Part shown: positions 2,361 through 52,090 of the stretch, piece after piece | Position numbering within the stretch: position 1 is the stretch's first letter | Layout: the number at the start of each line of letters is the position of its first letter | Assembly (NCBI GenBank): GCA_044224215.1 | Contig: JBGAKX010000007.1 | Span: 2,020-66,019 of the forward strand | Direction: 5' to 3' | Length of the DNA stretch: 64,000 bases | Source of the DNA: Blastocatellia bacterium | Lineage (GTDB): Bacteria; Acidobacteriota; Blastocatellia; UBA7656; JADIYM01 | Position numbers and translations under genes: made by a program | The notes under the pieces: generated by a model | The model's input: the letters and a program-made list of their open reading frames with translations, nothing else | Databases searched by the model: none | Told to the model about the DNA's origin: nothing

Positions 2361-2363
2361 CAC

Positions 2364-3152: not shown

Positions 3153-3176
3153 CAATCACATCGCCAGCCAGGGGTT

Positions 3177-4031: not shown

Positions 4032-4055
4032 ATGGTGAATACTGAAAGGACTCAT

Positions 4056-4832: not shown

Positions 4833-4859
4833 CGGGCCGCACACACTGGTGAGAATGGA

Positions 4860-18828: not shown

Positions 18829-20343
18829 TCACTGCCAGACCTTGAGGTCGTGCTTGCGGATCATGTGATAGAGACGCGGCCGATAGACGCCGAGCAGGTT
18901 CGCCGCCGCCTGCTTGTTTCCTTTCGTTCGCTCGAGCGCGGCAGCCACGATGGAGCCTTCGACCTGAGTCAGTACGTCGACGGCATCCTCAGCCTCGCGG
19001 CGAACCGAAACGCGATTGACGATTGTCCGGCCGAGACCGCGGAGCATGCTGCCGTCTTCAGCAGAGTCATCTGCGGATTCGCTCAACGAGCCAATGGCGG
19101 CCTGCGAGGCGCCGTTCACCACGGTGGTGGCGTGGATGTCGGACGTGGCGGTGGCCGCAAACGCGCGTTGCGGAGCCCGACCAACCTGGAGCGATGCCGC
19201 ATCCAGTACCGAGCCCTTGGTGAGCAGCACTGCGCGCTCCACCGTGTTCCGCAGCTCCCGCACGTTGCCGGGCCATGAGTACTCGAACAGGTACGCATAA
19301 GCCTGCTCTGAAATTGTATGCGCCGGTCGTTGGTACTTTTCAGAGAACTCCTGCAGGAAGTGTTCGGCAAGGCTCTGTATGTCGTCGATTCGCTCCCGCA
19401 GCGGCGGAACCACAATCTCGATGGTATTGACCCTGTAATACAGGTCTTCGCGCAGCGATCCGCTGTTGACCGCGTCGCGTGGATTCTGATTGGTCGCCGC
19501 GATCAATCGAAAATCGACCTCGAGTTGCTTTGTGCTTCCAAGGCACGTGTAGACGCGTTCCTGCAGAACGCGGAGCAGCTTCGGTTGCAGCTCGAGAGGC
19601 ATCTCGCCGATCTCGTCGAGAAACAGACTGCCGCCGTCCGACTGTCCGATCAGTCCGACCTTGTCGGAGGCTGCCCCCGTGAACGCCCCCTTTGTATGCC
19701 CAAACAGTTCCGACTCGATCAGTTCCTTGGGGAGGGCCGCACAATTCACCTTCATCATCGGTCTCTTCGCGCGCCGACTCCTGAAATGGATTGCGTTTGC
19801 GACCAACTCCTTTCCGGTACCCGACTCGCCGGTCACCAGGATGTTGGCATCGGACTCAGCAACGCTGTCGATGAGTTCAAAGATGTCCTGCATCGGCTTG
19901 CTGCTGCCGATGATGTTGAAGTACGAGGTTCGATTCGACAACTTGTCGCGCAACTGTCGAATCTCGGCTGCCTGCTGCCGGCGCTCGACGGCCTTGGCCA
20001 TCAGCACGGTCAACTCTTCGAACTCTGCCGGCTTTTCGACGAAGTAGAACGCCCCGGCCTTGGTCGCCTCCACCGCTTTCGAGACCGACCCGTATCCGGT
20101 GACGACGATGATCTCGGTGTCCGGCGAGGCCTCTCGGAGCTTCCGGACGAGCTCGATTCCATCGTGGTCGGGAAGATTCAGGTCGGTAAGCACGACATCG
20201 AACTGCCTGGAATTTGCAAGCCTGATCCCCTCGTCGCCCGTCACTGCCGTATGTACGGTGTGACCTTCCGCCGTCAGCTGGATGGTTGCGATCTCGAGCA
20301 TCGACTCGTCGTCATCGATGACAAGGACTTCCCATTTGCTCAT
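18829..20343 (-). CDS. sigma-54-dependent Fis-family response regulator (NtrC-like enhancer-binding protein)
   Basis: Receiver domain (VLVIDDD...DLNLPDHDG), AAA+ domain with GESGTGKE and GAFTGA, and a C-terminal Fis-type HTH. Confidence 0.9.
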   Translation of the reverse strand: MSKWEVLVIDDDESMLEIATIQLTAEGHTVHTAVTGDEGIRLANSRQFDVVLTDLNLPDHDGIELVRKLREASPDTEIIVVTGYGSVSKAVEATKAGAFYFVEKPAEFEELTVLMAKAVERRQQAAEIRQLRDKLSNRTSYFNIIGSSKPMQDIFELIDSVAESDANILVTGESGTGKELVANAIHFRSRRAKRPMMKVNCAALPKELIESELFGHTKGAFTGAASDKVGLIGQSDGGSLFLDEIGEMPLELQPKLLRVLQERVYTCLGSTKQLEVDFRLIAATNQNPRDAVNSGSLREDLYYRVNTIEIVVPPLRERIDDIQSLAEHFLQEFSEKYQRPAHTISEQAYAYLFEYSWPGNVRELRNTVERAVLLTKGSVLDAASLQVGRAPQRAFAATATSDIHATTVVNGASQAAIGSLSESADDSAEDGSMLRGLGRTIVNRVSVRREAEDAVDVLTQVEGSIVAAALERTKGNKQAAANLLGVYRPRLYHMIRKHDLKVWQ

Positions 20344-20381
20344 TGCTTTCCTTCCTTTCGCTTGTGAAGAGACACGGGGAC

Positions 20382-28318: not shown

Positions 28319-30403
28319 TCAGTCGATCGTCGCCAGCGGTTGGATCGTGAGTTCGGGCGTCAGCTCCAGCGGCGACAGCGTCACGAGGTCCGGAAGCTCG
28401 GTCTCGATGAGTGCGCGGACGTGTCGGCGTATGTCAGATTGGACGAGGAGCACCGGTCTCGGAGCGGACGAGCTACGCGGCGACGATTCCAGCCCGGCAA
28501 GCGTGGCGATAAACCGGTCGGCAACGCCCGGCTCGAGCGCGACCGGGGCCCCCGTCCGCGAGTACTGGACCGCATCGCGGAATGTCTGTTCGAGCCTGCG
28601 CGAGATGAGGTACACCGGCAGTGCAGTCCGCCCGCCCGCGACGGCGCCGCTGATCTGCCGTCGCAGGTTTGCGCGGACGATCTCCGTGAGCTCGATCGGT
28701 TCGACGTCGTGCTGGGCACACGATGCGATTGCCTCGAAGATGGCGCGCAGATCCCTGATCGAAACACGCTCGGCGACGAGGCGCCGCAACACGTCCGCAA
28801 GACGCGCGAGCGATACGAGTCGCGGGATCACCTCACCCACGAGCGCCGGGTGCGTCGATTCGAGCGCGTCGACCATGTCGCGCGTCTCCTGAACGCCGAC
28901 GTAGTCGGCAGCGATCGACACGACGGCGGTCTCGAGATGCCGGCAGACAAGGTCCGTATGATCGCCGGTCTCGTAGCCAGCCGAACGTGCCCGGGTCGCG
29001 GCCGCCTCCTCACACCACGCGAGCCTCGACCGACCGAACGGCGAGGGCCGGGCAGTGGCGTCGATTCCAAACGGAACGAGCTCTTCAACGGGTGCTTCCA
29101 CCCAATGTGGCTCCTTCGGCAGTTCTCCGCGGGCGACGACGACGCCGTCCGGTGCGATCTGATAGTCGGACGGTGGGAGCGATCGGGACATCTCGACGAT
29201 GATCTCCGGGAGTCGGATCCCGAGCTGTCCGGCGATCTTCAACCGCATCGCAGGCACGCGTGCGGACAACGCTCCGGAATCTCGTTGCTCGACCGCAGCG
29301 TGCGCCAGCTCGCCGAGAAGCACGCGAATCGGGGGACTTCCGGAAAGAACCAGCGCCGGATCGTGTTCGGTCCGTGACACGTCGCGTCGCGTTGCGGCCG
29401 AGCGAGTGGTCCTCGCAGGACAGGCTGCGGCCGCAAGACCCGCCGCACCGGCGAGCGCCAGAAACGGCACCGTCGGCAACCCCGGAACGCATGCGATCAG
29501 GCCGAGCAGGATGGCTGTAATGGCCAGCGCGCGCGGCTGGTGCGAGATCTGCGACGCGAGGTCGCCACCGAGGTTTCCGCCGGTGCGATCGCCGGGCACG
29601 CGCGTGACGACGAGCCCGGCCGTCGTCGACACGAGCAGCGACGGAAGCTGCGCCGCGAGCCCGTCTCCGACGGTGAGCACCGTGTAGTGCGATGCCGCCG
29701 TCCCGAACGACATTCCACGCTGCAGCACACCGATCGCAAGTCCGCCGACTATGTTGATCGCGACGATGACGAGGCCCGCGATCGCATCGCCCTTGACGAA
29801 TTTCATCGCGCCGTCGAGCGCGCCATAGAGCTGCGATTCGCGTTCGAGCGCGCGACGGCGATCCTGGGCCGCCTCCAGCGAGAGCGATCCCGCGCGCAGG
29901 TCGGCATCGATCGACATCTGTTTTCCAGGCAGCGCGTCGAGCGTGAAACGTGCGGCAACCTCGGCGACGCGCTCGGAACCCTTTGCGATCACGATGAACT
30001 GCACGAGCGCCATCACGAGAAACACCACGGCGCCGACAAGGATGTTGCCGCCGACGACGATGCGTCCGAACGCCTCGACGATGCGCCCGGCGTCGCCGTT
30101 CAGTAGGACGAGCCGCGTCGTCGAGATGTTCAGCCCGAGCCGGAACAGCGTTGCCAGCAGGAGGAGCGACGGGAGCACGGCGAGGCTCGCCGGCTCCGAG
30201 ACGTACAACGCCACGAGGAGCAGGCCGAGCGAGAGCGCGATGTTCAGCGCGATCATGGCGTCGAGCACGGTCGTCGGCAGTGGAACGATCACCATGCCGA
30301 TGACGCACACCACAAAGATGGCGATAACCGCATCGCCGGCAACCGGCGAGATGCGCGCGGGAATGCGCGTCAGTCGCCCTGGCATCTTTGGCAGTGTGAA
30401 CAT
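28319..30403 (-). CDS. sctV: type III secretion export-apparatus protein SctV/FlhA family
   Basis: About 695 aa. Eight N-terminal transmembrane helices, including the conserved FTLDALPGKQMSID, KFVKGDAIAGL and LTVGDGLAAQLPSLL blocks, followed by the cytoplasmic ring domain. Confidence 0.9.
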   Translation of the reverse strand: MFTLPKMPGRLTRIPARISPVAGDAVIAIFVVCVIGMVIVPLPTTVLDAMIALNIALSLGLLLVALYVSEPASLAVLPSLLLLATLFRLGLNISTTRLVLLNGDAGRIVEAFGRIVVGGNILVGAVVFLVMALVQFIVIAKGSERVAEVAARFTLDALPGKQMSIDADLRAGSLSLEAAQDRRRALERESQLYGALDGAMKFVKGDAIAGLVIVAINIVGGLAIGVLQRGMSFGTAASHYTVLTVGDGLAAQLPSLLVSTTAGLVVTRVPGDRTGGNLGGDLASQISHQPRALAITAILLGLIACVPGLPTVPFLALAGAAGLAAAACPARTTRSAATRRDVSRTEHDPALVLSGSPPIRVLLGELAHAAVEQRDSGALSARVPAMRLKIAGQLGIRLPEIIVEMSRSLPPSDYQIAPDGVVVARGELPKEPHWVEAPVEELVPFGIDATARPSPFGRSRLAWCEEAAATRARSAGYETGDHTDLVCRHLETAVVSIAADYVGVQETRDMVDALESTHPALVGEVIPRLVSLARLADVLRRLVAERVSIRDLRAIFEAIASCAQHDVEPIELTEIVRANLRRQISGAVAGGRTALPVYLISRRLEQTFRDAVQYSRTGAPVALEPGVADRFIATLAGLESSPRSSSAPRPVLLVQSDIRRHVRALIETELPDLVTLSPLELTPELTIQPLATID

Positions 30404-30552
30404 GCGTGACACGTAGGAACCGCCGTGGATACGGCCCCGAGGAATAATCGAATTCCCGCGCCCGAAGTTGTCCCCGAACCTGCGTGGTATACTCCCCCGG
30501 CGCTTCGGCGACGACCGGAAATGCCCGCGAAACCGCCCCTATCGCAACGCCC

Positions 30553-31791
30553 ATGAGCAAATCCAAGGTCTCCCTCATCGTTCAACCTGGCGACAGTTTC
30601 TTTCCGATCGTCGAGGCCATCGACGCTGCCCGCCAATCGATCAACATCACCATCTTTCGGCTTGACGACCCTGTCATCCAGAAGGCGCTCCACGAGGCGG
30701 TCGCGCGTGGCGTCAAGGTACGAGCGCTCATCGCAAAGTTCGCGCGCGGCTGGGAGAAGGAGAACAAAAAGCTGCTCAAGGACCTCGCAAAGTCCGGCAT
30801 CGAGACCAAGCAGCCGACGGTGGACAGCGCCAAGAAGCGCTACCACTACAAGATTCTCACCGTCGACGAGGCGCGGTCGCTCATCCTGACGTTCAACCCG
30901 ACGCGCGAGAACCTGCATTACACCCGCGACTACGGAGTCGTCATGTACGACCCGGCCGTAACGTGCGAGCTGGCGCGGCTGTTCGATGCGGACTGGTTCG
31001 AAAAGGACTTTTCGGTCGACAACACGCTTCCGCTTGCGATCAGCCCGTACAACAGCAGGTCGCGGCTGACGGACTTCCTCGATTCGGCGACGCGATCGAT
31101 CCATATCTCGGACGCCAAGGTTGAGGACCGAAAGATCCTCGATCTGCTGAAGCTGAAGGCGAAGGGCGGTGTCGAGGTCCGCGTGCTTGGTTCCAAGCCG
31201 TCGATCGCCGAGCGCGGCAGCCAGATCGAGTACCGGCAGATCACACGCTTCAAGATGCATGCCAAGTGCACCGTCGTCGATTCGGAGCGGGCATTCATTG
31301 CGAGCATGAACATGCGGCCGGTCAGCCTCGACGCGCGTCGCGAAGTCGGGATCCTCATCGACGACCCAAAGGCGATCGCCGAGATCGAACACGTGTTCGA
31401 CTCCGACTGGTCCCAGAAGCGCGCGGCACAGCAGACGATGAAGACGCAGATTCCCGGCGCCGTCGCCAAGGCCGCAGCTGCGGGCGCCGTTGGGAAGGCG
31501 TCGAACTTTGCGCTGCTGTCGCGCACGGACGCGCTGAGCCGGTTTCCGCTCGTGGACGGCGAGAATTCAATCGGGCGCAGCTCGACGAACGACATCGTCA
31601 TTGCGCACCCGAGCGTGAGTCGGGCCCATGCCTGCATTCACATCAACGGCGGCGCGTTCGTCCTGGAGGACCTTGGCAGCCAGAACGGCACGTTTCTGAA
31701 CGGCGACGCTGTCGAGGGCAAGGTTCCGCTCCATACCGGCGACATCGTCGGCATCGCCCAGTCGGACGAATTTCGCTTTCTCGAGGTCTAG
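30553..31791 (+). CDS. phospholipase-D-family (two HKD motifs) protein fused to a C-terminal FHA domain
   Basis: HYKILTVD and HAKCTVVD HKD motifs. The C-terminal NSIGRSSTNDIVIAHPSVSRAHACIHINGGAFVLEDLGSQNGTFLNGDAV...GDIVGIA fits the FHA pattern. Divergent from sctV. Confidence 0.75.
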   Translation: MSKSKVSLIVQPGDSFFPIVEAIDAARQSINITIFRLDDPVIQKALHEAVARGVKVRALIAKFARGWEKENKKLLKDLAKSGIETKQPTVDSAKKRYHYKILTVDEARSLILTFNPTRENLHYTRDYGVVMYDPAVTCELARLFDADWFEKDFSVDNTLPLAISPYNSRSRLTDFLDSATRSIHISDAKVEDRKILDLLKLKAKGGVEVRVLGSKPSIAERGSQIEYRQITRFKMHAKCTVVDSERAFIASMNMRPVSLDARREVGILIDDPKAIAEIEHVFDSDWSQKRAAQQTMKTQIPGAVAKAAAAGAVGKASNFALLSRTDALSRFPLVDGENSIGRSSTNDIVIAHPSVSRAHACIHINGGAFVLEDLGSQNGTFLNGDAVEGKVPLHTGDIVGIAQSDEFRFLEV

Positions 31792-41785: not shown

Positions 41786-41998
41786 ATCGACCGTGTAGTG
41801 CACCCGGACGACATCCGTCAACCGCGCACAAACTTTTCACCGGTTCTTTCACACGACTCACACAAGTTTCTTTGAGCCGAGCCACGCGATTCTCCTAAAA
41901 AGCACTGAGTTCACGAGATTTCAACGTGCGGCACGCTTCTTGAAACACCGTTGCCGCGTACCCCCACGGCAACTCTTGCAGACCGGAAGGAGACCGAT

Positions 41999-42682
41999 AT
42001 GAGCGCTGTTCTCGAGAAGCTCGAGTCTTCACGCACGCGCACGAACCGGACACGAAAGACGAAGGAGGCTGCCCACCGCGACCTCCTCGTGACCAAGTAC
42101 AGGCCGTACGTGCTCAAGCTCGCGCGCGTGATTGCCGAGACGGTGCCGATACACGTCGAGTTGGACGACCTGATTGGCTGGGGCCATTGGGGGCTCATGG
42201 AAGCCGCAACCCGGTTTGATCCCGATCGCGGCGTTGCGTTCCGAACGTTTGCGCACCGGCGAATCGTCGGCGCGATGTACGACGGCCTTCGCCGCGAGCA
42301 AAGCGTCACGTCACGGCTGCCGTTGCCCGACGACGAGCTCCTCGGCCCCGGGAGCGTCCAGGTGGCGGACGGCGCATACGCGACCGAACCGATCTACTTC
42401 GGACCGCGCGCGATGCCCGGCGCAACGCCGTCGGCGGCGCATCAGGAGCACGAACTCCTGCTCGGCGAGTTGCAGGCGCAGCTCGCACGAGCGCTCAAGA
42501 CGTTGACGCCCCTCGAGCGGGCGATCATCCGGCAGCGGTATTTCAACGATCAACCTGTCCAGAAGCTGTGCAAGCGAACGCGATTCTCGAAGTCGTGGCT
42601 GTCGCGAGTGCACGGACGGGCGCTTGCGCGCCTCCGCGAAAGCATGGCCGAGGCTCAGCGTCACACGGTGAGCGGCAAATGA
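41999..42682 (+). CDS. sigma-70-family sigma factor, FliA/sigma-28-like (group 3)
   Basis: Region 2 (YRPYVLKLARVIA...DDLIGWGHWGLMEAATRFDP) and region 4 (LTPLERAIIRQRYFNDQPVQKL) are present; there is no region 1. It is the first gene of the T3SS operon. GGAAGGAGA ribosome-binding site. Confidence 0.75.
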   Translation: MSAVLEKLESSRTRTNRTRKTKEAAHRDLLVTKYRPYVLKLARVIAETVPIHVELDDLIGWGHWGLMEAATRFDPDRGVAFRTFAHRRIVGAMYDGLRREQSVTSRLPLPDDELLGPGSVQVADGAYATEPIYFGPRAMPGATPSAAHQEHELLLGELQAQLARALKTLTPLERAIIRQRYFNDQPVQKLCKRTRFSKSWLSRVHGRALARLRESMAEAQRHTVSGK

Positions 42683-42996
42683 GCGGCCCGATCTCACGCA
42701 CTCAGGCACCGACGTCGCACGTTGGTCAGCGCGCGAACGGGCTCGCCGGGGCCGAGCGCTTGGCCCAAAACACGCCACCGCACACGTCGTTTGCCGCGAC
42801 GCTCGAGCGTGCGACGCGCGCGCTCGAATCGCCCGTCGCGTCGGCCGCCCGCGCCTCCGGCCCGACATCGCCGATGGCGGAAGCCATCGAGCTCCAGGCG
42901 CGCGTCTACCGGGACGCGGAGCGTATCGAGCTTGCGTCCAAACTGCTCGACCACGCGGTCGGGGCCGTGAAGACGGTGCTCCAGACGAGGGTGTGA
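42679..42996 (+). CDS. sctI: small protein in the sctI (inner rod) / fliE position, 105 aa
   Basis: Its position immediately before sctJ matches yscI, and its size is similar. Sequence similarity to SctI or FliE is weak. The ATGA overlaps the sigma-factor stop. Confidence 0.4.
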   Translation: MSGPISRTQAPTSHVGQRANGLAGAERLAQNTPPHTSFAATLERATRALESPVASAARASGPTSPMAEAIELQARVYRDAERIELASKLLDHAVGAVKTVLQTRV

Positions 42997-43769
42997 TGCT
43001 CACACCGGTACCGAAACTCGCGACGTTGCTCATCGCGCTCGCGCAATGCGGCCTCGTGGCGTGCGGCGGCCGCGCGTTGCTCAGCGAGCTGACCCCCTCC
43101 GAGGCCGAGCGATGTTCGGTCGTGCTGCGGTCGGCGGGACTCGACGTGACGGTCGAGCGGGACGACAGCGGCGGAGATGCAGGCCGCCGGCTCACCCTGC
43201 GCGGCGACGAGGCCGATTATCGAACCGCGTTGCGTGTCCTCGAAGAACACAACCTTCCGCATCGGACGGCTCCTGGATTCTCGACGGAAACATCGGCACT
43301 GATTCCGACGGCGACCGAGGAGCGCGCGCGGTTCATCAAGGGGCTTTCAGGTGAGATCGAAGCGATGATCGAGAGCGTCGACGGCGTCGTCGACGCCGAG
43401 GCTCTCGTGAGCATCCCCGAACGTCGCGCGCTTGCGGGCCCCGAAGCCGAGGCGGCGTCTGCATCGGTCGTGGTGTCGCATACGGGCACGACGCCTCCTA
43501 TATCGACGGACGAGATCCGAGCGCTGGTCGTGCAATGTGTCGGGTCGGCGCTGAGCGCCGATCACGTCACCGTGCTGCTGAAGCCGATCGTCCGGCCGGA
43601 CACCGCGGCGCCGATCGTTCGCTACCAGCGCGATCACATGGTCGAGCTGGGATTCCTGGGATGCGTGACGTGCCTCGGAGCCATGGAGCTCGTCACGCTC
43701 TTCTACCTGCGGCGCGAGCGCGGCCGCGTGCGAATCCTGGAGGCCACGGGCGATGATCGATCAGCGTGA
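42993..43769 (+). CDS. sctJ: T3SS inner-membrane-ring lipoprotein SctJ (YscJ/PrgK/EscJ family)
   Basis: Lipobox LAQCGLVAC, a YscJ/FliF-family periplasmic domain of about 200 aa, and a single C-terminal transmembrane segment with a short cytoplasmic tail. The size is that of SctJ (about 250 aa), not FliF (about 550 aa). Confidence 0.8.
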   Translation: MMLTPVPKLATLLIALAQCGLVACGGRALLSELTPSEAERCSVVLRSAGLDVTVERDDSGGDAGRRLTLRGDEADYRTALRVLEEHNLPHRTAPGFSTETSALIPTATEERARFIKGLSGEIEAMIESVDGVVDAEALVSIPERRALAGPEAEAASASVVVSHTGTTPPISTDEIRALVVQCVGSALSADHVTVLLKPIVRPDTAAPIVRYQRDHMVELGFLGCVTCLGAMELVTLFYLRRERGRVRILEATGDDRSA

Positions 43770-44541
43770 CAGCGTGTCGGCGCTCCTCGAGCTGGCGTCA
43801 CAGGCAACCACGGACGGCGTTCGGGCGACCGCGCTCCGCCGCATCGAGGCGCTCGCCGATGCCGAGCTCGATCGTGCGCGCTGCACAGCGAACGTTGCTG
43901 CGATGCGAGAGGCGCTCAGGCCCGCCGTGCATTCGCTGGCACACCATCGCGTTGTCGTGGAGCTGCTCGATGCGCGCCGCACGGGAGGTCAACGCGACAG
44001 GCAGCCCGCGCACGGTTGCCCGGACACCTCGATGGTCGATCGCTTTGTACGAAACGCGCTGACGCTCGGCGTGCCGCGTCTTCGACGATCGTCGCGTCCC
44101 GCGGATGCTCGCGACGCCCGCTGCTGGCGCACTCTCGCGAGCGCCCCGCCGGCAGAGGTCGACAGTCTGGCTCGCGACGCCGGATGTCTCGCGTGCGCCG
44201 TGCTGCTCAGAGACCTCGAGCGAGCGCGCGCACTCAGGTTTCTCGAGCTACTCGGCGAGGAACGCGCAGAGCTCGGCCGGCTTGCGCAGTTCGTACCACC
44301 TCCCGATGACGGTCTTGCACGGTGGACGCTCGAGCTTGTGACCGAGCTTGGCTCCCAAGCGCACGGCGACGCGCTCGCAACGATAGGCGGCGCCCTCATC
44401 CGGTCACTGACAGCCGCGATGGAGCCCGATGTCGGGGCGGCATTGCAGCGCCGGATCGGGCCGCCGGTTCTGTCGACAGCGCCGACACCGCCCGAGTGGC
44501 ACGACGCGGTTCGCCGTCTCGTCGAGGCGAGCAACCCGTGA
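43753..44541 (+). CDS. hypothetical protein in the sctK position
   Basis: Lies between sctJ and sctL, as yscK does. It has no recognisable motif, consistent with SctK being poorly conserved. Confidence 0.45.
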   Translation: MIDQRDSVSALLELASQATTDGVRATALRRIEALADAELDRARCTANVAAMREALRPAVHSLAHHRVVVELLDARRTGGQRDRQPAHGCPDTSMVDRFVRNALTLGVPRLRRSSRPADARDARCWRTLASAPPAEVDSLARDAGCLACAVLLRDLERARALRFLELLGEERAELGRLAQFVPPPDDGLARWTLELVTELGSQAHGDALATIGGALIRSLTAAMEPDVGAALQRRIGPPVLSTAPTPPEWHDAVRRLVEASNP

Positions 44542-44549
44542 CCATCCCG

Positions 44550-45181
44550 ATGCGCATCGAGGTCGTCCGCCGATCGTCGGACCCGCCAGACGTCGGGCGC
44601 GCCGCGGCCTCGCGCGCCTTCGTCTCCGCTCAGCGGGCACGTGCGCGCGCGGAGGCGAGCGCGACGCTGCAGACCGCGGCCGAAACCGCCAGCCGGCACA
44701 TCGAACGGGCGCGTGCCGAGGCGGAGGCACTGCGCGACGCCGCGCGCGTCGAAGGCCACGTCGACGGTGAACGCCCGCGCGTGCCGCCCTCGAACTGGCG
44801 GAGAGTCGCGCCCGCCTTCTGGGAAACCTCGAGCGAGATTGTGTAACGCTGGCGCTCGAGATCGCGCGACAGATTGTCGGGACTGCAGTCGCGGTGGATC
44901 GCGGTCTCGTCGATGCCATTGCCGAGCGCGTGTGTGTCCCGCTCAAGCGTGACGGCGTGCTCACCGTGCGTGTGTCGCGCGACGACGTGGATCGGATCGA
45001 CCCGATCCGCGAGCGACTCGCGCAGGCCGGACCCGTCACGATCGAAATCGATCCGACACTCTCGTCCGGCGAATGCGTCGCCGAATGCGCTGGCGTTCGC
45101 GTCGATGGACGGCTGGATGTCCAGCTTGCCGCGTTCGAGCAGCGCCTGCTCGAACGACCCTCCAGCGGGGGCCGGCAATGA
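44550..45181 (+). CDS. sctL: T3SS stator protein SctL (FliH/YscL family), interrupted by a -1 frameshift near 44765-44780
   Basis: The N-terminal Ala/Glu/Arg-rich part (RARARAEASATLQTAAETASRHIERARAEAEALRDAARVEG) is in frame 0, which ends at 44846. The FliH-type C-terminal domain (ARAALELAESRARLLGNLERDCVTLALEIARQIV...VRVDGRLDVQLAAFEQRL) is in frame 2, open from 44771 to 45181. Confidence 0.65.
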
Positions 45182-46458
45182 GCGAGTTCAACGCCCAGCG
45201 ATTGCTCGACCGCCTTGGCGCGCCGCATCACGTCGACGTTCGCGGCTCCGTGCGGAGCGCCGTCGGTCTGGTTCTGCGCGCAGCCGTGCCCGATGCGTCG
45301 ATCGGCGAGCTGTGCGAGGTCCACTCGCACGGTTCCAGCGAGGCCCTGGTTGCGGAGGTCGTCGGCTTTCGCTCAACTGAAGCGCTGCTCATGCCGCTCG
45401 GCGATCTGCGGGGAATCGGGTCGAATAGCCTCGTCCGCCGGCTCGGCCGGACACTGTCGGTTCCCGCCGCCGGATCGCTGATCGGACGCGTGCTCGACGG
45501 CCTTGGCAGGCCCGCCGACGGCAGACCTCTCGCCGATGCCGGCGATCGGTGGCCGGTCCATCGCGCGGCGCCAAATCCGCTCGAGCGGCAGCCCGTATGC
45601 GAGCCATTCCACACGGGTGTTCGGGCGATCGACGGTCTGCTGACGGTTGGCGTCGGCCAGCGCATGGGAATCTTCGCCGGGGCGGGAGTCGGCAAGAGCA
45701 CCCTGCTCGGAATGATCGCGCGGAACGCCCCCTCGGACGTCGTCGTGATCGGCCTGGTCGGCGAGCGCGGACGCGAGGTTCGCGAATTCCTCGAATCGGA
45801 TCTCGGCGAGGACGCGCGCTCGCGATCGGTCACCATCGTGGCGACGAGCGATCAGCCCCCGATCGTTCGTTTGAAGGCCGCGTACGTCGCGACGTCGATT
45901 GCCGAGCAGTTCAGGGCGCAGGGGCTTCGCGTGCTGTTTCTGCTCGATTCGATCACGCGTTTTGCGCGCGCCCTTCGCGAGGTAGGCCTCGCGGCCGGTG
46001 AGCCCCCCGCCCGCGCAGGCTATCCGCCGTCGGTCTTTGCCGAACTGCCGCGGCTGCTCGAGCGAACCGGGAATGACGGATGCGGTGCGATCACCGCGTT
46101 CTATACCGTGCTCGTGGAGGGCGACGATCACGGCGAGCCCGTTGCGGACGAGACGCGCTCGATTCTCGACGGGCACATCGTGCTCTCTGCCGAGCGCGCG
46201 GCGCGCGATGTCTTTCCCGCAATAGACATTGGCCGAAGTGCGAGCAGGACGATGGCGCGCGTTGTCGACGATCTCCACGGGGACGCCGCGCGGGCCGTTC
46301 GCGGGTTGCTGGCAACGTACGAGCGCGAGCGGGACCTGTTGATCCTGGGAGCGTACGAAACCGGCACAGATCAACGAATCGACGACGCGGTCGCGAAGAT
46401 CGACCGGATTGAAGCATTTCTTCAGCAGCGTCCGAACGAGCGCAATGCTTTGCCGTAA
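45178..46458 (+). CDS. sctN: T3SS ATPase SctN (FliI/YscN family)
   Basis: Walker A GAGVGKST, Walker B LLDSITRFA and full F1/T3SS-ATPase collinearity. The ATGA overlaps the sctL stop. Confidence 0.92.
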   Translation: MSEFNAQRLLDRLGAPHHVDVRGSVRSAVGLVLRAAVPDASIGELCEVHSHGSSEALVAEVVGFRSTEALLMPLGDLRGIGSNSLVRRLGRTLSVPAAGSLIGRVLDGLGRPADGRPLADAGDRWPVHRAAPNPLERQPVCEPFHTGVRAIDGLLTVGVGQRMGIFAGAGVGKSTLLGMIARNAPSDVVVIGLVGERGREVREFLESDLGEDARSRSVTIVATSDQPPIVRLKAAYVATSIAEQFRAQGLRVLFLLDSITRFARALREVGLAAGEPPARAGYPPSVFAELPRLLERTGNDGCGAITAFYTVLVEGDDHGEPVADETRSILDGHIVLSAERAARDVFPAIDIGRSASRTMARVVDDLHGDAARAVRGLLATYERERDLLILGAYETGTDQRIDDAVAKIDRIEAFLQQRPNERNALP

Positions 46459-46485
46459 CGCGCGAGGAAGCTCGTTGAGCTCGCG

Positions 46486-46569
46486 ATGCCCGACACTCTC
46501 GACGACGGCGAGATCGATCCGCTCGACGATCCGTTCGGGACAGCCGACGATGACGCGGAGGTCGGATGA
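46486..46569 (+). CDS. tiny acidic ORF (27 aa) coupled to sctO; doubtful
   Basis: MPDTLDDGEIDPLDDPFGTADDDAEVG. Its stop overlaps the sctO ATG (ATGA). Confidence 0.15.
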   Translation: MPDTLDDGEIDPLDDPFGTADDDAEVG

Positions 46570-47054
46570 CGCGCGTCGGCTACAGGCTCGACGTCCTGGT
46601 TCGTCTCGCCGAGATCGGACACCGGCGCGCAGCGTGCTCGTTTGCGGCGGCGGCGGCAGTCGCGCGATCGCACGCCGATCGCGCGGCGCGGCTCGGCGCG
46701 GAAGCTCGCCCGCGCGCCCGAGACGCTGCCACGATGGATGCCGACACGGGCGCATACCGGACCGTTGACGCGCGGCGTCGCAGCGACGCTCACGTGAGGC
46801 TAGAGACCGGACGAGCCGCGCGCGTGGAGGATGATCTCGCCCGGGCGTCCGATCTCGCCGCGCTCGCGCATGTGCGCGTCGCCGAACTTCGGCAGGAGCT
46901 TGGACGTGCCTCGCGCGATGCCCGGCTTCAAGAAGCGCTCAGGGACGCTGCGATGTCACGGATGAGTGCGGAACGGCAACGTCGCGAGGCGCGTCGTGCA
47001 AACGCCGACGCACTCGATGCGTGGTGCGCACGGAGGATCGCAGATGACGATTGA
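46566..47054 (+). CDS. sctO: T3SS stalk protein SctO (YscO/FliJ-like coiled coil)
   Basis: About 160 aa, Arg/Ala/Glu-rich coiled coil, located between sctN and sctP as yscO is. Confidence 0.6.
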   Translation: MTRVGYRLDVLVRLAEIGHRRAACSFAAAAAVARSHADRAARLGAEARPRARDAATMDADTGAYRTVDARRRSDAHVRLETGRAARVEDDLARASDLAALAHVRVAELRQELGRASRDARLQEALRDAAMSRMSAERQRREARRANADALDAWCARRIADDD

Positions 47055-47589
47055 GTCCGACGGACGACCGGATCAGGTTGCGGCTTCGAGGAGCGCGGAA
47101 CTCGGCGATCCGAACGCCGGCTGCGACGGCGCGTTTGCGGATGTGTTGTCCACGCGCCTCCGCGCCGGGCGACGACGCCGATCGAAGAGTTCAATGCGGC
47201 CGATGCGCGCGCCCGAACCCGGGTGCTTGCGAGCCTCGAGTCCATTCAGCGGCCCGCACGGTCCCGCAACCGACACGACGAGCGATCCGGCAGCGCGCGT
47301 CGAACGCGTGCTGCGAGCCTTCGCGCTCGGGAACCTGGAGCAGGCCGCGACGGATCCCAGTCTGCGACTCCCGACATCGGACGGTTCCGTCGTCGCGATT
47401 CGGGTCGAGCGGTCCGCCGAGGGGCTGTGCGTCACGCTCGAATCCTCCCAGCGATGGGTCGCCGCGCTGGCCGGCTCGATCCCCGGGATGCTGGCGCGTC
47501 TGAACACCGCCGGAGGTCGCGTCCTTCGCATTCGTACCGTCGTAGCTCGAAAGCTCGTTCCACGCGAACGTCAGGAGCACCGCCGATGA
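47044..47589 (+). CDS. hypothetical protein in the sctP (length-control / FliK-like) position
   Basis: Positional inference only. SctP proteins are poorly conserved. Confidence 0.4.
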   Translation: MTIESDGRPDQVAASRSAELGDPNAGCDGAFADVLSTRLRAGRRRRSKSSMRPMRAPEPGCLRASSPFSGPHGPATDTTSDPAARVERVLRAFALGNLEQAATDPSLRLPTSDGSVVAIRVERSAEGLCVTLESSQRWVAALAGSIPGMLARLNTAGGRVLRIRTVVARKLVPRERQEHRR

Positions 47590-49034
47590 CCGCCCTTGAA
47601 CGAGCGCACGACACAGGGCTCAACGTGCGAGACGAGACGACACGCCTGTCGGTGCGTGTCATCGGCCCTGACGAAGCCCGCTTTCTTCGCGCCGTGGCGG
47701 AACTGCAATTTCCACCGGGACTTGCGAGCGAAGTCGCGCGGGCGGCATGCGAGGCGATCGGCCCGTTGCGGCCGTCCGTGGGGCGTCCGCTCGTCACACT
47801 CGACCTTGCAGACCGTCAGCTCGAGATGGCCCCGGACGAGACGACGTTTGCCGACGACGCGCTCGATCCGTCACGTCACGGCGTCGAGATCCGCCGGGGG
47901 CGCACAGGCCCACGGCTCGTCCGCATTGGTGACGGGCAGGTCCGCCGAAACGGCTGGCCCATTCCCCGGCTTGTCCCGACAAGTCTCGATCACGGCGACG
48001 TCGTTTCGACGCCCGATGGAATGTTCGTCGTGCGGTTGTCGCCGCGGTCCGCACGCGGACCCGTGGCTGTGCGCTCGGTGCGTCATCTTTCCGAGAGGAT
48101 TCCCGGCTGGCCCGAGTTCGCGTTTGTCGTCGAGCCGTCCGGGGCGCCGCTTGTGCTCGCGATCGACAGGCCGACGTGCCGCGCCCTCGTCGACGTCGCG
48201 CTCGATGGCGACGGCGGTCGCGCATTTGACGCGACCCTGCTGGGCGATGTCGAACACGCAGTTGTCAGTTGGACCGTCCACCGCATCGCCAATGCCGTGT
48301 CGGTGCATGTCTTTCACGGCGCGGTCACATTCGCGCCTGCAGACGACGCCGCTGTCGAGTCGCCGATCGCGTGTGTCGCGACGGTACGTGTCGGTGGATA
48401 CTCAGGCGTCGTCCAGTTGGCAACGACCGTCACTGGAGTGAAGGCGATGGCAGCCGCGCTGTCGCCCCACACGCGCGACGCGCGCCGGCGGAACCCCGTG
48501 CTTCGCGCGATCGCAACCACCGTATCCGCACGCATCCCGATCGGCCGCATCACGGCGCGTGAACTGGCGTCGATCGAGGTTGGCGATCATTTCGTGTGTC
48601 GACACGCGCCATGGCGAAACGACGTTGTACGCGAGATCGAAGGCGTCGTCGTCGTTTGCGACACCGGCGTCGCGGCGCCCGTGCACCTCGTCTGGGACGA
48701 CGGCGGACTGCAGGTGCTCGTCGCGGGATCAGTGACCATAGGAGGAACCGAAGCGATGAACGCCGAAACAACGGCCACAACTGTCGATCCGAGCGATCCG
48801 TTCGCATCCGTGATGGACGACGTTCGGGTTACCGTCTCGGTCGAGCTTGCACAGCGTCGCATCACGTTGGCCGAGTTGCTCAACGTTCGCGACGGAAGCG
48901 TGATCGAGTTTGGCACGCCCCTCGCGACCGACGTCGCGCTGATGATCGACGGCTCGATCTTTGCTCGCGGCGAAATCGTGTCCGTCGAAGGCGCGCTGGG
49001 TGTGCGGATCACGTCGCTCGGAGGACGGCGATGA
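47586..49034 (+). CDS. sctQ: T3SS cytoplasmic sorting-platform protein SctQ (FliM/FliN-like, C-terminal SpoA domain)
   Basis: C-terminal SpoA/FliN domain VRVTVSVELAQRRITLAELLNVRDGSVIEFGTPLATDVALMIDGSIFARGEIVSVEGALGVRITSL. The ATGA overlaps the sctP stop. Confidence 0.8.
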   Translation: MTALERAHDTGLNVRDETTRLSVRVIGPDEARFLRAVAELQFPPGLASEVARAACEAIGPLRPSVGRPLVTLDLADRQLEMAPDETTFADDALDPSRHGVEIRRGRTGPRLVRIGDGQVRRNGWPIPRLVPTSLDHGDVVSTPDGMFVVRLSPRSARGPVAVRSVRHLSERIPGWPEFAFVVEPSGAPLVLAIDRPTCRALVDVALDGDGGRAFDATLLGDVEHAVVSWTVHRIANAVSVHVFHGAVTFAPADDAAVESPIACVATVRVGGYSGVVQLATTVTGVKAMAAALSPHTRDARRRNPVLRAIATTVSARIPIGRITARELASIEVGDHFVCRHAPWRNDVVREIEGVVVVCDTGVAAPVHLVWDDGGLQVLVAGSVTIGGTEAMNAETTATTVDPSDPFASVMDDVRVTVSVELAQRRITLAELLNVRDGSVIEFGTPLATDVALMIDGSIFARGEIVSVEGALGVRITSLGGRR

Positions 49035-50266
49035 ATCGCATGCCTGCCCCAAACTCCGGACTGGCACCGATCGTGTCGGGCCGGCTCCGCCTCGCCCCGA
49101 TCGAGGGTGCGATCGTTCTCGTTGCACTGCTGGCTGTTGCTGCGGCCGGCGGTTCAAAGCCCGTTCTCGTCGCCGCCGTTGCCTCGGTCGCCGGAACGAT
49201 GCTCGTCGTGCGTTCCCGTGCAGGGCGACCAGGATCGCCTCCATCCACCGTGGTCGAGCGAATCAGCACGTGCGCGCTCGGACCCGGCGCGGCGATCCAT
49301 GTCGTCGCGTGCGACGGTCAGCGATTGCTCGTTGGAGTCACGGGCGCGTCCATCGTCGTCATTCGGGAGCTGCCGGCCACACCCGGGCCCTCCACGGAGC
49401 CTGAATTCACGACCGCCAGATCGACGTCACGCACGGTGATGTCGGCGCTCATTCTCGGTGCGCTCCTGCTTGCGCCGTGCGCGACGATTGCCGGTCAGCA
49501 GCACGAATCGTCGACGCAGCGTGTCGGCGAGACATCCGGAGAGAACGTACCGGCGGCCACTTCGTTCCCGTCGAGCACTTCCAGTCAATCCGTCGCCGCG
49601 TCGCAGCCACGTGCCGACATCGCGCCACCCGTAACCGGGATCGGCCCGCCGCCGTACGGCACGCTGGCGTTGCTCGCGGGTCTCGCGCTGCTCCCCTTTC
49701 TCTTGATGGCCGTCACGTCGTTCGCAAAGATCTCGATCGTGCTGTCGCTGCTCCGAAACGCGCTTGGAACGCCGCAGGTCCCGTCGGACCCCGTGCTCGC
49801 AGGCATCGCTCTGGCGCTCACGATATTCGTCATGGGGCCCGTTGCCTCTGAATCCATGCGCCGCGTTGGCTCCGTCGATACCGCGACGATCGGCGGCGTG
49901 CTCGACGCAGCAGGGCGCGCGGCAGAGCCGCTCATGGCGTTTCTCAAGCGCAACACGCGCGATGAAGAGATCGCGCTCTTTGTCGAACTCTCCACCGCGC
50001 ATGGGTCGCCGCATGCCGACGCAGGCTCGGGCACCGTGCTGATTCCCGCCTTCGTGACGACCGAGTTGCGACAGGCATTCGTGACGGGATTCGTCATCTA
50101 CCTTCCCTTCCTCGTCGTGGACATGGTCGTTGCGAACATCCTGATGTCGATGGGCATGGTGATGGTCTCGCCGGGCACGGTCGCCCTGCCGTTCAAACTG
50201 ATGCTCTTCGTGCTCATCGACGGATGGCCGCTTCTCCTGAAGGGCCTCGCGCTCAGCTACAACTGA
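49031..50266 (+). CDS. sctR: FliO-like domain fused in frame to export-apparatus protein SctR (FliP/YscR)
   Basis: The N-terminal ~135 aa carry a transmembrane helix plus LGPGAAIHVVACDGQRLLVGVTGASIVVIRELP, matching the E. coli FliO C-terminus LGQRERVVIVEVEDARLVLGVTAGQINLLHKLP. They are followed in frame by a FliP-type signal peptide (MSALILGALLLAPCATIAG) and FliP blocks (MAVTSFAKISIVLSLLRNALG; FVIYLPFLVVDMVVANILMSMGMVMVSP). Confidence 0.8.
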   Translation: MNRMPAPNSGLAPIVSGRLRLAPIEGAIVLVALLAVAAAGGSKPVLVAAVASVAGTMLVVRSRAGRPGSPPSTVVERISTCALGPGAAIHVVACDGQRLLVGVTGASIVVIRELPATPGPSTEPEFTTARSTSRTVMSALILGALLLAPCATIAGQQHESSTQRVGETSGENVPAATSFPSSTSSQSVAASQPRADIAPPVTGIGPPPYGTLALLAGLALLPFLLMAVTSFAKISIVLSLLRNALGTPQVPSDPVLAGIALALTIFVMGPVASESMRRVGSVDTATIGGVLDAAGRAAEPLMAFLKRNTRDEEIALFVELSTAHGSPHADAGSGTVLIPAFVTTELRQAFVTGFVIYLPFLVVDMVVANILMSMGMVMVSPGTVALPFKLMLFVLIDGWPLLLKGLALSYN

Positions 50267-50268
50267 CC

Positions 50269-50538
50269 GTGGAACATTCGATCCTTACACTGTGCCAGCA
50301 GGCACTCGTCGCAATACTTGCGATTTCGGCGCCCGTCACACTCGCCGCGCTCGCGGTGGGGCTCGCCGTGAGCGTGCTGCAGACTGCAACGCAGATCCAG
50401 GAACAGACGCTCGGCAATCTCGCAAAGCTCCTCGCCGTGTGTTTCGCGCTCGTGATCGCCGGTCCATGGATGCTGTCGCAACTCGTCCGCTTCGCGACCC
50501 TGATGTTCGAGCAGGTGCCGGCCGTCGGCGGCTGGTGA
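50269..50538 (+). CDS. sctS: export-apparatus protein SctS (FliQ/YscS)
   Basis: SILTLCQQALVAILAISAPVTLAALAVGLAVSVLQTATQIQEQTL is collinear with YscS DIIHFTSQALWLVLVLSMP...LTQIQEQTL. GTG start. Confidence 0.85.
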   Translation: MEHSILTLCQQALVAILAISAPVTLAALAVGLAVSVLQTATQIQEQTLGNLAKLLAVCFALVIAGPWMLSQLVRFATLMFEQVPAVGGW

Positions 50539-50547
50539 CGGACGACC

Positions 50548-51288
50548 GTGACCACGTGGCTCGCCATCTTTGCGCGTGTGGCGCCGATCGTCGCGCTCCA
50601 TCCGGTCTTTGGCGGCCGCTCGGTGCCCCGAAGCCTGGTGCCGGTCGTCGCCGCGGCGATCGCAAGCGCTATGTATGCCTCGCTCGGCGGCACGACATCG
50701 ATCCATCAGCCGCTTGCGACTATCGTCATTCAGTGCGCGATCGGGGTCTCGATTGGCGTGTCGGGTGTCGTCGTCGTCGGTGCAATCGAATCCGCCGCGC
50801 GGCTCGTCGACGAATCGCGCGGTGCGAACGCGGCGCAGTATTACGTGCCGCAACTGGAGACGTATTCGAGCCCGCTTGCGCAGCTCGACGCACTCGCATG
50901 CGTGGCCGTCTTCTGGGTGACCGGTCTTTACCGGCCGTTCATGCGAGCGCTCTTCGCTTCGTTTTCCGCGCTGCCCATCGACGCGGACACATTGACCACA
51001 CTCCATCGTGCGGACGCCATCGAATTGATTGCGCACATCGCAGCGTCGATTGTCACAGCGGCCGCGGGTCTTGCGGCCCCAGCAATGGCGACGAGCCTGA
51101 TCGTCGACGTGTCGCTCGGGCTGGTCAATCGCGCATCGCCGCAGGCGAACGTCTTCTTTCTGGGGCTGCCGGTAAAGCTCCTGGCCGTTGTCGCCGTGAT
51201 GGCCATCGGACTGCCCGAGCGTGCCGAGATATGGAGCGGGCTCTGGACCTCGGACCTGGAATGGCTTCGGCGAGTGTGGGGGTCATAA
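50548..51288 (+). CDS. sctT: export-apparatus protein SctT (FliR/YscT)
   Basis: About 246 aa, six transmembrane helices, FliR-family pattern. GTG start 9 nt after sctS. Confidence 0.8.
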   Translation: MTTWLAIFARVAPIVALHPVFGGRSVPRSLVPVVAAAIASAMYASLGGTTSIHQPLATIVIQCAIGVSIGVSGVVVVGAIESAARLVDESRGANAAQYYVPQLETYSSPLAQLDALACVAVFWVTGLYRPFMRALFASFSALPIDADTLTTLHRADAIELIAHIAASIVTAAAGLAAPAMATSLIVDVSLGLVNRASPQANVFFLGLPVKLLAVVAVMAIGLPERAEIWSGLWTSDLEWLRRVWGS

Positions 51289-51289
51289 C

Positions 51290-52090
51290 ATGCTCTCGAT
51301 CGTTGCGCTCAGGAACTTTGGAACCGGCGGCGCCGCAGTCGTGTGCCGGCCGGGACGCCGCGGCGAGGTAGTCCGGATCGGTGGCGGCGTGCGCGACCAG
51401 GTCCGGCTCGCCGGGTGCAGCACGTCGGCGGACCTGTTCTTCGACGGTCGCGTGTGGCGAATCCGGTTCGCCGACGGGGTCGTCCGGCGAATCGGCGACG
51501 GCGATGGAATCTCGCTCGACGAGTGGCACGTCACGCTGCTGATCGACGACGACCCGCCGCACTCAGCGGCGCAGTCCGACGTCGATGCGGCGTGGTTCGA
51601 ATCCGACACGCAGGCGCCATGTCCGATCACAGCCGGAGCCCCCGCACTGATCGGGACGGCAAGGTGGTGCTCCATCCGACTCCCGGAAGCAGAGTTCCCG
51701 ACCATCGGCATCGTCCGGCGGAACCGCAGTCACGAGACGCGGCTTCACACGATCCCCGGCATTGCCATCCTCGTCAACGGTCAGACGGTCCGCGATTCGA
51801 TCCGGCTTGCCGACGGGGCGGTGCTCGAGGTCTGGTCGGCCGCGCAGCGCCGGCCGATTCGGTACCGAGATCCATGCGAAGAGATCGACCGGATCCTCGG
51901 AACGATCGCTCAACCCGCGACGCCAGACTCGCCCGACCCGGGTCGCGTCGAGACCTCGATCGCGGGAAGGCTCCGCGAACTCGTCGGCACGAATCCGCGT
52001 GCCATGCTGCGACCCGACGAGGCGGTACTCGTCGCCATCGTCGTGTCAGCAGTCGTGGGGTTCGCGGTGCTCGTGGCCGCGCAGTGGTGA
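51290..52090 (+). CDS. tandem FHA-like domain protein with a C-terminal transmembrane anchor (SctD-like cytoplasmic module?)
   Basis: The second domain, IGTARWCSIRLPEAEFPTIGIVRRNRSHETRLHTIPGIAILVNGQTVRDSIRLADGAVLEV, fits the FHA pattern; the first domain is degenerate. A C-terminal transmembrane segment (AVLVAIVVSAVVGFAVLVAA) ends the protein. It occupies the position where sctU/flhB is expected. Confidence 0.55.
   Translation: MLSIVALRNFGTGGAAVVCRPGRRGEVVRIGGGVRDQVRLAGCSTSADLFFDGRVWRIRFADGVVRRIGDGDGISLDEWHVTLLIDDDPPHSAAQSDVDAAWFESDTQAPCPITAGAPALIGTARWCSIRLPEAEFPTIGIVRRNRSHETRLHTIPGIAILVNGQTVRDSIRLADGAVLEVWSAAQRRPIRYRDPCEEIDRILGTIAQPATPDSPDPGRVETSIAGRLRELVGTNPRAMLRPDEAVLVAIVVSAVVGFAVLVAAQW

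Follow-up and report, generated by a model that had tools for sequence, protein, structure and literature searches.

A densely packed operon on the plus strand (positions 41999-52090) of a 64-kb stretch of DNA (the window) from a metagenome-assembled genome (MAG) of an uncultured Blastocatellia bacterium (Acidobacteriota; soil/wastewater) raises the question of what kind of type III secretion system (T3SS) it encodes. The first-pass annotation had described the operon as an atypical injectisome-type system and had offered three readings of it, namely a hybrid of flagellum and injectisome, a degenerate non-flagellar T3SS, or a divergent flagellar derivative. We consider it probable that the locus is the inner-membrane and cytoplasmic half of a T3SS of the kind found in Myxococcota (needleless and secretin-less; here called Myxo-type), vertically inherited in a Blastocatellia lineage. 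Needleless T3SSs have been regarded as peculiar to Myxococcota and as possibly intermediate between flagellum and injectisome, and Acidobacteriota are among the most abundant soil phyla. A conserved system in this phylum would widen the distribution of needleless T3SSs beyond Myxococcota and provide a second, independent lineage for asking what such a half-machine exports and how.

Genes were called from third-position GC, frame plots and translations, the 64% G+C of the window making raw lists of open reading frames (ORFs) noisy, and window ORFs were assigned to families by Pfam and NCBIfam searches. The operon reads sigma, sctI-like, sctJ, orf4, sctL, sctN, sctO, sctP, sctQ, a fliO-sctR fusion, sctS, sctT and orfX (Table 1), with junctions formed by ATGA or GTGA overlaps, overlaps of 11 to 17 nt, or gaps no longer than 9 nt; the start of sctN is probably 45178, within such an ATGA overlap. 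The close coupling and the span given earlier were borne out, but the count of 15 genes was not: relatives have 13, and the surplus window ORFs come from a frameshift in sctL and a premature stop in sctN. The proposed Yersinia-like (ysc) gene order was confirmed for sctJ, sctN and sctQ and is supported by profile for sctI, while sctK, sctO and sctP are placed by position only and the sctR, sctS and sctT calls had to be shifted. The last gene (51290-52090), previously taken as sctT, encodes a tail-anchored protein with tandem FHA domains (OrfX), and sctT is the gene before it (50548-51288).

Core items of a non-flagellar T3SS were present in this non-proteobacterial host, as had been proposed: a short SctJ lipoprotein, an hrcV-type SctV, SctN (truncated here), SctQ, SctR, SctS and SctT. 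SctJ (257 aa, with an LVAC lipobox and a single C-terminal transmembrane [TM] segment) had the injectisome form assigned to it earlier, the flagellar MS-ring protein FliF being ~550 aa long, and scored 95.8 bits with the YscJ model TIGR02544 (below the equivalog cutoff of 161.95) versus 19.5 bits with FliF. SctQ scored 86.5 bits with the SpaO_YscQ model TIGR02551 versus 54.8 bits with FliN. SctV is encoded 11.6 kb upstream of the operon on the opposite strand, in agreement with the distance of about 12 kb noted before; it passed the cutoff of the hrcV model TIGR01399 (709.5; cutoff, 692.25) and failed that of the FlhA model (609.3; cutoff, 772.1), and its best PDB matches were YscV and SsaV, followed by FlhA. 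In a neighbour-joining tree of the SctV N-terminal domain with bootstrap, the clade of the window sequence grouped with SctV of Myxococcota (88%), at distances of 0.53-0.61, compared with 0.74-0.76 to YscV/SsaV, 0.84-1.01 to FlhA and 0.95 to SctV of Pyrinomonadaceae.

A rearranged flagellar export operon, with the rest of the flagellar regulon elsewhere in the genome, would account for the FliA-like sigma factor, for the FliO domain, for the flagellar names given to FliM/FliN, FliO and FliR by the NCBI Prokaryotic Genome Annotation Pipeline (PGAP), and for the scores of SctN, which were nearly equal for SctN (564.6 bits with TIGR02546) and FliI models and, in the PDB, for FliI and EscN; yet the ring protein is the SctJ lipoprotein and not FliF, SctV fails the FlhA cutoff, passes that of hrcV and groups with proteins from Myxococcota (a phylum taken as non-flagellated), no fliE, fliF, fliG, fliM, rod or hook gene lies beside the operon in five lineages, and a sigma gene and fliO also occur in a non-flagellar Myxococcaceae locus. 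Pfam scans of the sizeable ORFs of the 64 kb detected no flagellar rod, hook, motor, flagellin or FliG family, as the first-pass annotation had also found. The flagellar reading is largely refuted and in our estimate extremely improbable, and the SctV scores and the Myxococcota grouping speak likewise against a divergent flagellar derivative.

The Myxococcaceae locus in question (L026, from a MAG), whose genes were assigned with hidden Markov models (HMMs) built from orthologues of the window clade, has the order sigma, SctI-like, SctJ, a 626-aa protein, SctL, SctN, SctO, SctP, SctQ, FliO, SctR, SctS, SctT and SctU, with TPR chaperone-like genes at both ends. It shares with the window the order from sigma to sctT, a homologous head sigma (31% identity; E = 8e-26), fliO, and the lack of secretin, needle and translocon genes. 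Because L026 has both, the head sigma and fliO belong to the myxobacterial needleless T3SS family; their presence in the window had been seen correctly, but their interpretation as flagellar features did not hold, and with it the case for a hybrid of flagellum and injectisome was lost. FliO has been reported in non-flagellar T3SSs of Myxococcota (PMC12403147), and Abby and Rocha (2012) described the Myxococcota loci, of whose short-locus type L026 serves here as the example, as conserved yet without secretin, SctF and translocon, in a survey in which non-flagellar T3SSs were confined to Chlamydiae, Proteobacteria and Verrucomicrobia (PMC3459982). Of the items that define the Myxo-type, the ATPase, SctJ, SctI and the export apparatus were present in the window, the last apart from sctU, which was not found in cis in the 64 kb, and secretin, SctF and translocon genes were not seen there.

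The SctI-like protein (105 aa) gave neither a Pfam match nor a PDB sequence match. A profile of three orthologues matched the ORF directly upstream of sctJ in L026 (domain E = 6.7e-6) and, weakly, an ORF of an Ignavibacteriaceae flagellar locus that lies where fliE would be expected, and the C-terminus (...KTVLQTRV) is conserved among orthologues; the two profile matches support an SctI/FliE-like identity for this second gene of the operon. Beyond its acidobacterial host, the window differs from L026 in the fusion of FliO to SctR, in carrying orfX after sctT where L026 has sctU, in the gene after sctJ (262 aa versus 626 aa), in a shorter SctP with no detectable FliK domain, in the displacement of sctV, which in the window clade is paired with a gene for a PLD-FHA protein, and in the sigma-54 promoter of the clade. 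The 626-aa protein at the SctK position of L026 (3269-5149) showed a weak match to FliG_C (E = 0.0017, below cutoff), a possible hint of a FliG-like component in T3SSs of the Myxo-type.

Neither Bac_export_2 (SctU/FlhB) in any scanned ORF of the window nor the SctU autocleavage motif NP[TE]H in its six frames could be detected; no secretin (SctC) family matched its sizeable ORFs, and needle (SctF) and translocon genes were not found in the 64 kb, all in line with the earlier statement that these genes are missing in cis. The remaining sizeable ORFs matched housekeeping, regulatory and transport families only (Pfam). In relatives, no sctU lay within 10 kb of sctN or sctV, and ~45 kb of contiguous L001/L005 sequence held no secretin, SctF or translocon gene. 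The strict core of an injectisome was therefore incomplete in the window, sctC and sctU not being found. That the operon is one locus of a complete injectisome with sctC, sctD, sctF, sctU, translocon and effectors scattered elsewhere in the genome, as Abby and Rocha describe for Chlamydiales (PMC3459982), is in our view very unlikely: sctV already lies 11.6 kb away, a canonical gate would require sctU elsewhere, and the SctI-like and SctP-position genes hint at some axial structure, but by SctV and synteny its nearest relatives are of the Myxo-type, for which an absence of secretin, SctF and translocon throughout the genome has been reported (PMC3459982), and none of the genes sought appeared in the two stretches just described.

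Several observations weigh against a Myxo-type half-system. To our knowledge sctU is required in every T3SS studied so far, and it was found neither in the 64 kb nor near sctN or sctV of the relatives; no substrate, effector or chaperone was identified in the window. SctK, SctO and SctP were identified by position only: orf4 had no match in Pfam, NCBIfam or the PDB (the last by profile search), and its single-sequence AlphaFold 2 (AF2) model was unusable (predicted local distance difference test [pLDDT] score, 47). Its position is kept in L001, L003 and L089 at an identity of only 23-30%, and hhalign detected no similarity to the 626-aa protein at the same position in L026. The window SctP-position protein had no family match, although its equivalent in L026 bears a Flg_hook (FliK C-terminal) domain; the gene equivalent to that at the SctO position carries a FliJ/YscO-like Pfam domain in L090, an acidobacterial locus described below. 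The SctN tree (neighbour-joining) recovered the window clade at 100%, with deep nodes at 22-34% bootstrap. Because it leaves the deep branches unsupported, the assignment relies on SctV, HMM cutoffs and synteny. The window copy itself bears a frameshift in sctL, a truncation of sctN and a degenerate sigma-54 site, and the roles given below to OrfX and the sigma factor are ones that we infer.

Conservation of the operon was assessed in its relatives. The ThiC protein encoded in the window is identical to HQR40273.1, a protein of a Blastocatellia bacterium MAG. SctN had one relative at 99% identity, a distinct clade at 65-71%, and then Pyrinomonadaceae at ~60%. All 13 genes were found, in unchanged order and with intact ORFs, in L002 (99.2% nucleotide identity to the window), L001 and L003/L004, and, as far as the contig extends, in L089. 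Flanks were alike in three relative loci, with an HD-domain gene upstream and genes for elongation factor P (EF-P), a rhodanese, a TPR protein and GcvT downstream. The FliO-SctR fusion recurred in L001, L002 and L003, while FliO and SctR are separate genes in L026 and in the acidobacterial locus L087. Across lineages EF-P was 85-89% identical and the T3SS proteins from 23% to 67%. That the operon is intact across substantial divergence therefore argues for function in the family, which, judged by its sequences, is maintained and not decaying. A degenerate system, as proposed earlier, does not describe the family, the 13-gene operon being intact in four other lineages, and is possible for this copy.

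The T3SS genes had a GC content of 65-69% and their flanks one of 62-64%, the operon lying 3 to 5 GC points above its flanks, and recent horizontal transfer was considered as an origin of this offset. It was rejected: GC at third codon positions was not elevated (0.74-0.82 in T3SS genes versus 0.82-0.86 in housekeeping genes), and the same offset was seen in L001, L003 and L006 and tracked host GC in four lineages. The offset stems from proteins rich in Ala, Arg and Gly, not from foreign codon usage.

In the literature we found no account of a non-flagellar T3SS from Acidobacteriota. What the locus adds is a needleless T3SS of the Myxo-type from a phylum new to such systems, with an altered set of parts that includes the FliO-SctR fusion, orfX, a displaced sctV and a sigma-54 promoter. 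Because public annotation of the clade (PGAP) calls the products flagellar (FliM/FliN, FliO, FliR) or hypothetical, the system is invisible to routine surveys; in Pyrinomonadaceae MAGs, PGAP does name SctN and SctV. An exact-sequence look-up of SctN with either start returned no identical entry, a scan of a genome collection with SctJ alone returned no relative, and one with the SctN clade alignment was dominated by flagellar FliI, the genomes of the clade being absent among the matches listed.

The lesions of the window copy were defined by comparison with L002. A net 4-nt deletion (44775-44777) splits sctL into an N-terminal part in frame 2 and a C-terminal part in frame 1; it lies in a perfect 7-bp inverted repeat of L002 (ACGCGCC-TG-GGCGCGT), a context prone to slippage or assembly error, and a single intact sctL of 211-216 aa with the Pfam FliH domain was present in L001, L002, L003 and L089. 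In sctN, a -1/+1 indel pair at 46445/46466 generates a TAA that removes the C-terminal tail, which is conserved and present in all relatives (SctN of 449-467 aa); the remnant behind the stop translates as ...LVELAMPDTLDDGEIDPLDDPFG..., a match to the C-terminal end of L002 SctN. Gap openings between the window and L002 all fell inside the operon (14/14), and mismatches clustered in sctO, sctP, sctQ and the FliO portion of the fusion gene (46000-50000). Their density was 22-33 per kb in the sctL-sctP stretch, with 1-9 per kb in the remaining 1-kb bins. The genes in which mismatches clustered had 9-25 changed codons each, non-synonymous changes being at least as frequent as synonymous ones; the sigma gene, the SctR half, sctT and orfX were nearly unchanged. 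This pattern suggests a strain-level hot spot of divergence, recombination, or a mixed-strain consensus.

For a second MAG from this population, the assembly is interrupted precisely in the interval from orf4 to sctQ. Because it breaks in the same stretch, the sctL and sctN lesions may be artefacts of mixed-strain assembly; they may also be real decay, and this copy inactive. In the latter case this copy would be a decaying pseudogene cluster, the family being functional elsewhere and the system being lost in this strain. We hold this to be unlikely, although degeneration of this particular copy is possible: both lesions, the concentration of gaps in the operon and the altered sigma-54 site would agree with it, but that site is shared with L002, in which every ORF is intact under the same promoter sequence, the break and the high mismatch density in the sctL-sctP stretch allow for consensus or assembly errors, and the remaining 11 genes of the window copy are intact.

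For the sigma factor at the head of the operon, the best NCBIfam matches were WhiG and FliA models at about 95 bits, below their cutoffs. Its best scores with TIGR02479 and NF005413 were 93.5 and 83.1 bits (cutoffs, 189.6 and 201), and it passed only the sigma70-ECF (extracytoplasmic function) superfamily model TIGR02937 (73.1 bits; cutoff, 42.9). By its profile scores it is thus FliA-like, yet no family member by NCBI thresholds. Upstream of the sigma gene (49-55 nt), a perfect sigma-54 site (TGGCAC-N5-TTGC) was present in L001, L003 and L089, each time as the sole perfect match within the locus. The homologous site of the window and of L002 is CGGCAC-N5-TTGA, thus with TTGA instead of TTGC, and shows an apparent ~11-nt insertion between the -24 and -12 elements; the window site is by itself not above chance (51 two-mismatch hits versus 55 expected). 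In L026, no match to the consensus was found when one mismatch was allowed outside the GG and TG bases. The window operon contained no internal promoter of the sigma-70 type that could be found, and terminator-like sites in it did not exceed expectation. A search for sigma-28-type motifs upstream of sctV met intergenic regions too short and too divergent for comparison.

An NtrC-type activator gene (receiver, Sigma54_activat and HTH_8 domains) adjoining a PAS-containing hybrid histidine kinase gene (18829-22868, minus strand) lies 19 kb upstream of the operon and is a candidate for activating the sigma-54 site; this pair was not seen near the operon in L001/L005, and no link to the site was found. 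Hierarchies leading from sigma-54 to FliA govern flagella in Vibrio and Pseudomonas. A sigma-54 promoter also stands upstream of a T3SS-associated alternative sigma gene in the HrpR/S-sigma-54-HrpL cascade of Pseudomonas syringae (PMC5263251), whereas the window sigma gene is co-transcribed with structural genes and its product is FliA-like rather than of the ECF type, its activator and targets being putative.

OrfX, the product of the final gene, matched no family in the Pfam and NCBIfam searches and was modelled with AF2 from a 14-sequence alignment (pLDDT, 84) as two FHA beta-sandwiches followed by a TM helix (residues 242-265 of 266). The family profile matched the FHA domains of KIF1A/B and Ki-67, and the phosphothreonine-binding motif GR...SxxH...N is conserved in neither FHA domain. 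An exhaustive search of 1.84 billion representative proteins yielded a family of 18 members, of which a word-indexed search recovered only the cluster of OrfX itself. SctD (YscD, PrgH, MxiG) combines a cytoplasmic FHA domain at its N-terminus with one TM helix and with periplasmic domains that build the ring; OrfX contains two copies of the FHA fold and one TM helix, but the helix ends the protein and no periplasmic domain follows, so OrfX is not an SctD. The displaced sctV is divergently paired with the PLD-FHA gene, as it is in L005 (8645-12052) and L006 (8606-12082), and is followed downstream by a HAD hydrolase gene. The FHA domain of the PLD-FHA protein keeps the GR...SxxH...N motif. This protein may be a T3SS partner, a regulator or a phospholipase cargo.

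From these parts a mode of action can be proposed. The sigma-54 promoter, which needs an enhancer-binding activator, would probably drive the operon, and the FliA-like sigma factor, as its first product, would probably switch on further genes, for example sctV, the missing sctU, or substrates. The export gate has SctR, SctS and SctT from the operon and SctV from 11.6 kb away, and the operon further encodes the SctJ ring, SctQ, the rod protein resembling SctI, and the SctN ATPase together with SctL as its stator. The FliO-SctR fusion would supply the assembly factor in cis. OrfX, predicted to be tail-anchored with both degenerate FHA domains facing the cytoplasm, would be the best candidate for tying the sorting platform of SctK, SctQ, SctL and SctN to the membrane ring, as the FHA domain of SctD does. 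Substrates would be exported across the inner membrane only and, without another conduit, end in the periplasm; passage of the outer membrane would need a separate conduit, as in the model put forward for the Myxococcus T3SS*/Kil pilus (PMC10433427, PMC12075869). The missing sctU is the main gap in this scheme, and either is encoded elsewhere or the system works without it.

The second of these options, taken to its end, would be a minimal T3SS truly without SctU and SctD, in which OrfX replaces the membrane-platform link of SctD and perhaps takes part in gating or switching, the PLD-FHA protein serves specifically as a partner or as a phospholipase cargo, and a separate outer-membrane conduit serves interbacterial antagonism as in T3SS*/Kil. 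We judge this version quite unlikely; if it were true, needleless T3SSs would be a widespread weapon or export device of soil bacteria and not a myxobacterial oddity.

Set against known systems, the Myxo-type half-system of the window resembles the T3SS* of Myxococcus xanthus (MXAN_2434-2464; Thiery et al. 2022, via PMC10433427 and PMC12075869). T3SS* shares the inner-membrane platform, export apparatus, ATPase complex and C-ring, is likewise without secretin, needle and translocon, and is conserved in a way that argues for function; it differs in that a single large cluster encodes a full SctD, SctU, SctV and LcrH-type chaperones, and in that it works with the Tad-like Kil pilus. A function of T3SS* in predation has been reported (PMC10433427, PMC12075869). 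In the window, neither a chaperone nor an effector nor a Tad link was found. With the Ysc/Inv injectisomes, the window shares homologous SctJ, SctL, SctN, SctQ, SctR, SctS, SctT and SctV and the ysc-like order I-J-K-L/N-O-P-Q-R-S-T, but it is without SctC, SctF, SctU, SctW, tip, translocon and the periplasmic part of SctD, and has FliO and an operon-encoded sigma factor.

Two further loci from the same phylum (L087 from Pyrinomonadaceae, L090 from other Blastocatellia) have an SctN ~60% identical to that of the window and also FliO. L087 shares a tail-anchored double-FHA protein (351 aa, two FHA-like domains and a C-terminal tail anchor; 3967-5022, just upstream of sctV), and L090 shares a sigma-70-family sigma factor and, upstream of its T3SS operon, a perfect sigma-54 site just after a sigma-54 activator gene. 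Both differ from the window in having sctU and sctV in cis, separate FliO and SctR, TPR chaperone-like genes and another gene order, and their type of SctV is distant from that of the window (0.95, versus 0.53-0.61 for Myxococcota). They represent a second, differently organised type of acidobacterial T3SS, on which we found no paper. Recurrent accessory parts to which the locus points are a sigma factor encoded in the operon, control by sigma-54, FliO, and membrane proteins with FHA domains.

Table 1. Position, strand and basis of assignment of the features of the T3SS locus in the window.
Feature	Position	Strand	Basis or remark
Degenerate sigma-54 (-24/-12) promoter-like site, CGGCAC-N5-TTGA	41929-41943	+	55 nt upstream of sigma start
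Sigma-70-family sigma factor, FliA/WhiG-like	41999-42682	+	Pfam Sigma70_r2, Sigma70_r4; first gene of operon
SctI-like protein (inner rod/FliE-like), 105 aa	42679-42996	+	Orthologue profile; position before sctJ
SctJ inner-membrane ring lipoprotein, 257 aa	42996-43769	+	Pfam YscJ_FliF above gathering threshold
orf4, helical protein, 262 aa	43753-44541	+	SctK position only
sctL (FliH-like ATPase stator)	44538-45181	+	Frameshifted by a deletion of net 4 nt (44775-44777)
sctN ATPase, 426 aa as read	45178-46458	+	Pfam ATP-synt_ab, T3SS_ATPase_C
sctN 3'-end remnant	46459-46569	+	Frame 0 kept after premature stop
SctO-position coiled-coil protein, 162 aa	46566-47054	+	Position and composition only
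SctP-position protein, 181 aa	47044-47589	+	Position only
SctQ cytoplasmic ring/sorting-platform protein, 482 aa	47586-49034	+	Pfam FliMN_C, residues 410-477
FliO-SctR(FliP) fusion, 411 aa, one ORF	49031-50266	+	Pfam FliO 68-124, FliP 214-406
sctS, 89 aa	50269-50538	+	Pfam Bac_export_3; alternative start 50224
sctT, 246 aa	50548-51288	+	Pfam Bac_export_1, E = 4e-42
orfX, two FHA domains and C-terminal TM tail anchor, 266 aa	51290-52090	+	Final operon gene
sctV export gate	28319-30412	-	Pfam FHIPEP, E = 6.5e-208; ATG start at 30403 also possible
PLD-FHA protein (two PLDc_2 and C-terminal canonical FHA)	30484-31791	+	Pfam PLDc_2, FHA, Yop-YscD_cpl

Elsewhere in the window, three paralogous enoyl-CoA hydratase genes and a 3-hydroxyacyl-CoA dehydrogenase gene (1527-4832, plus strand) form an ordinary metabolic cluster, and two tandem genes for MacB/FtsX-type permeases (61279-63789, minus strand) an ordinary transport cluster. 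A gene at 58289-58750 (minus strand) encodes a small dual-specificity phosphatase that matches the polymorphic-toxin-associated Tc-R-P family.

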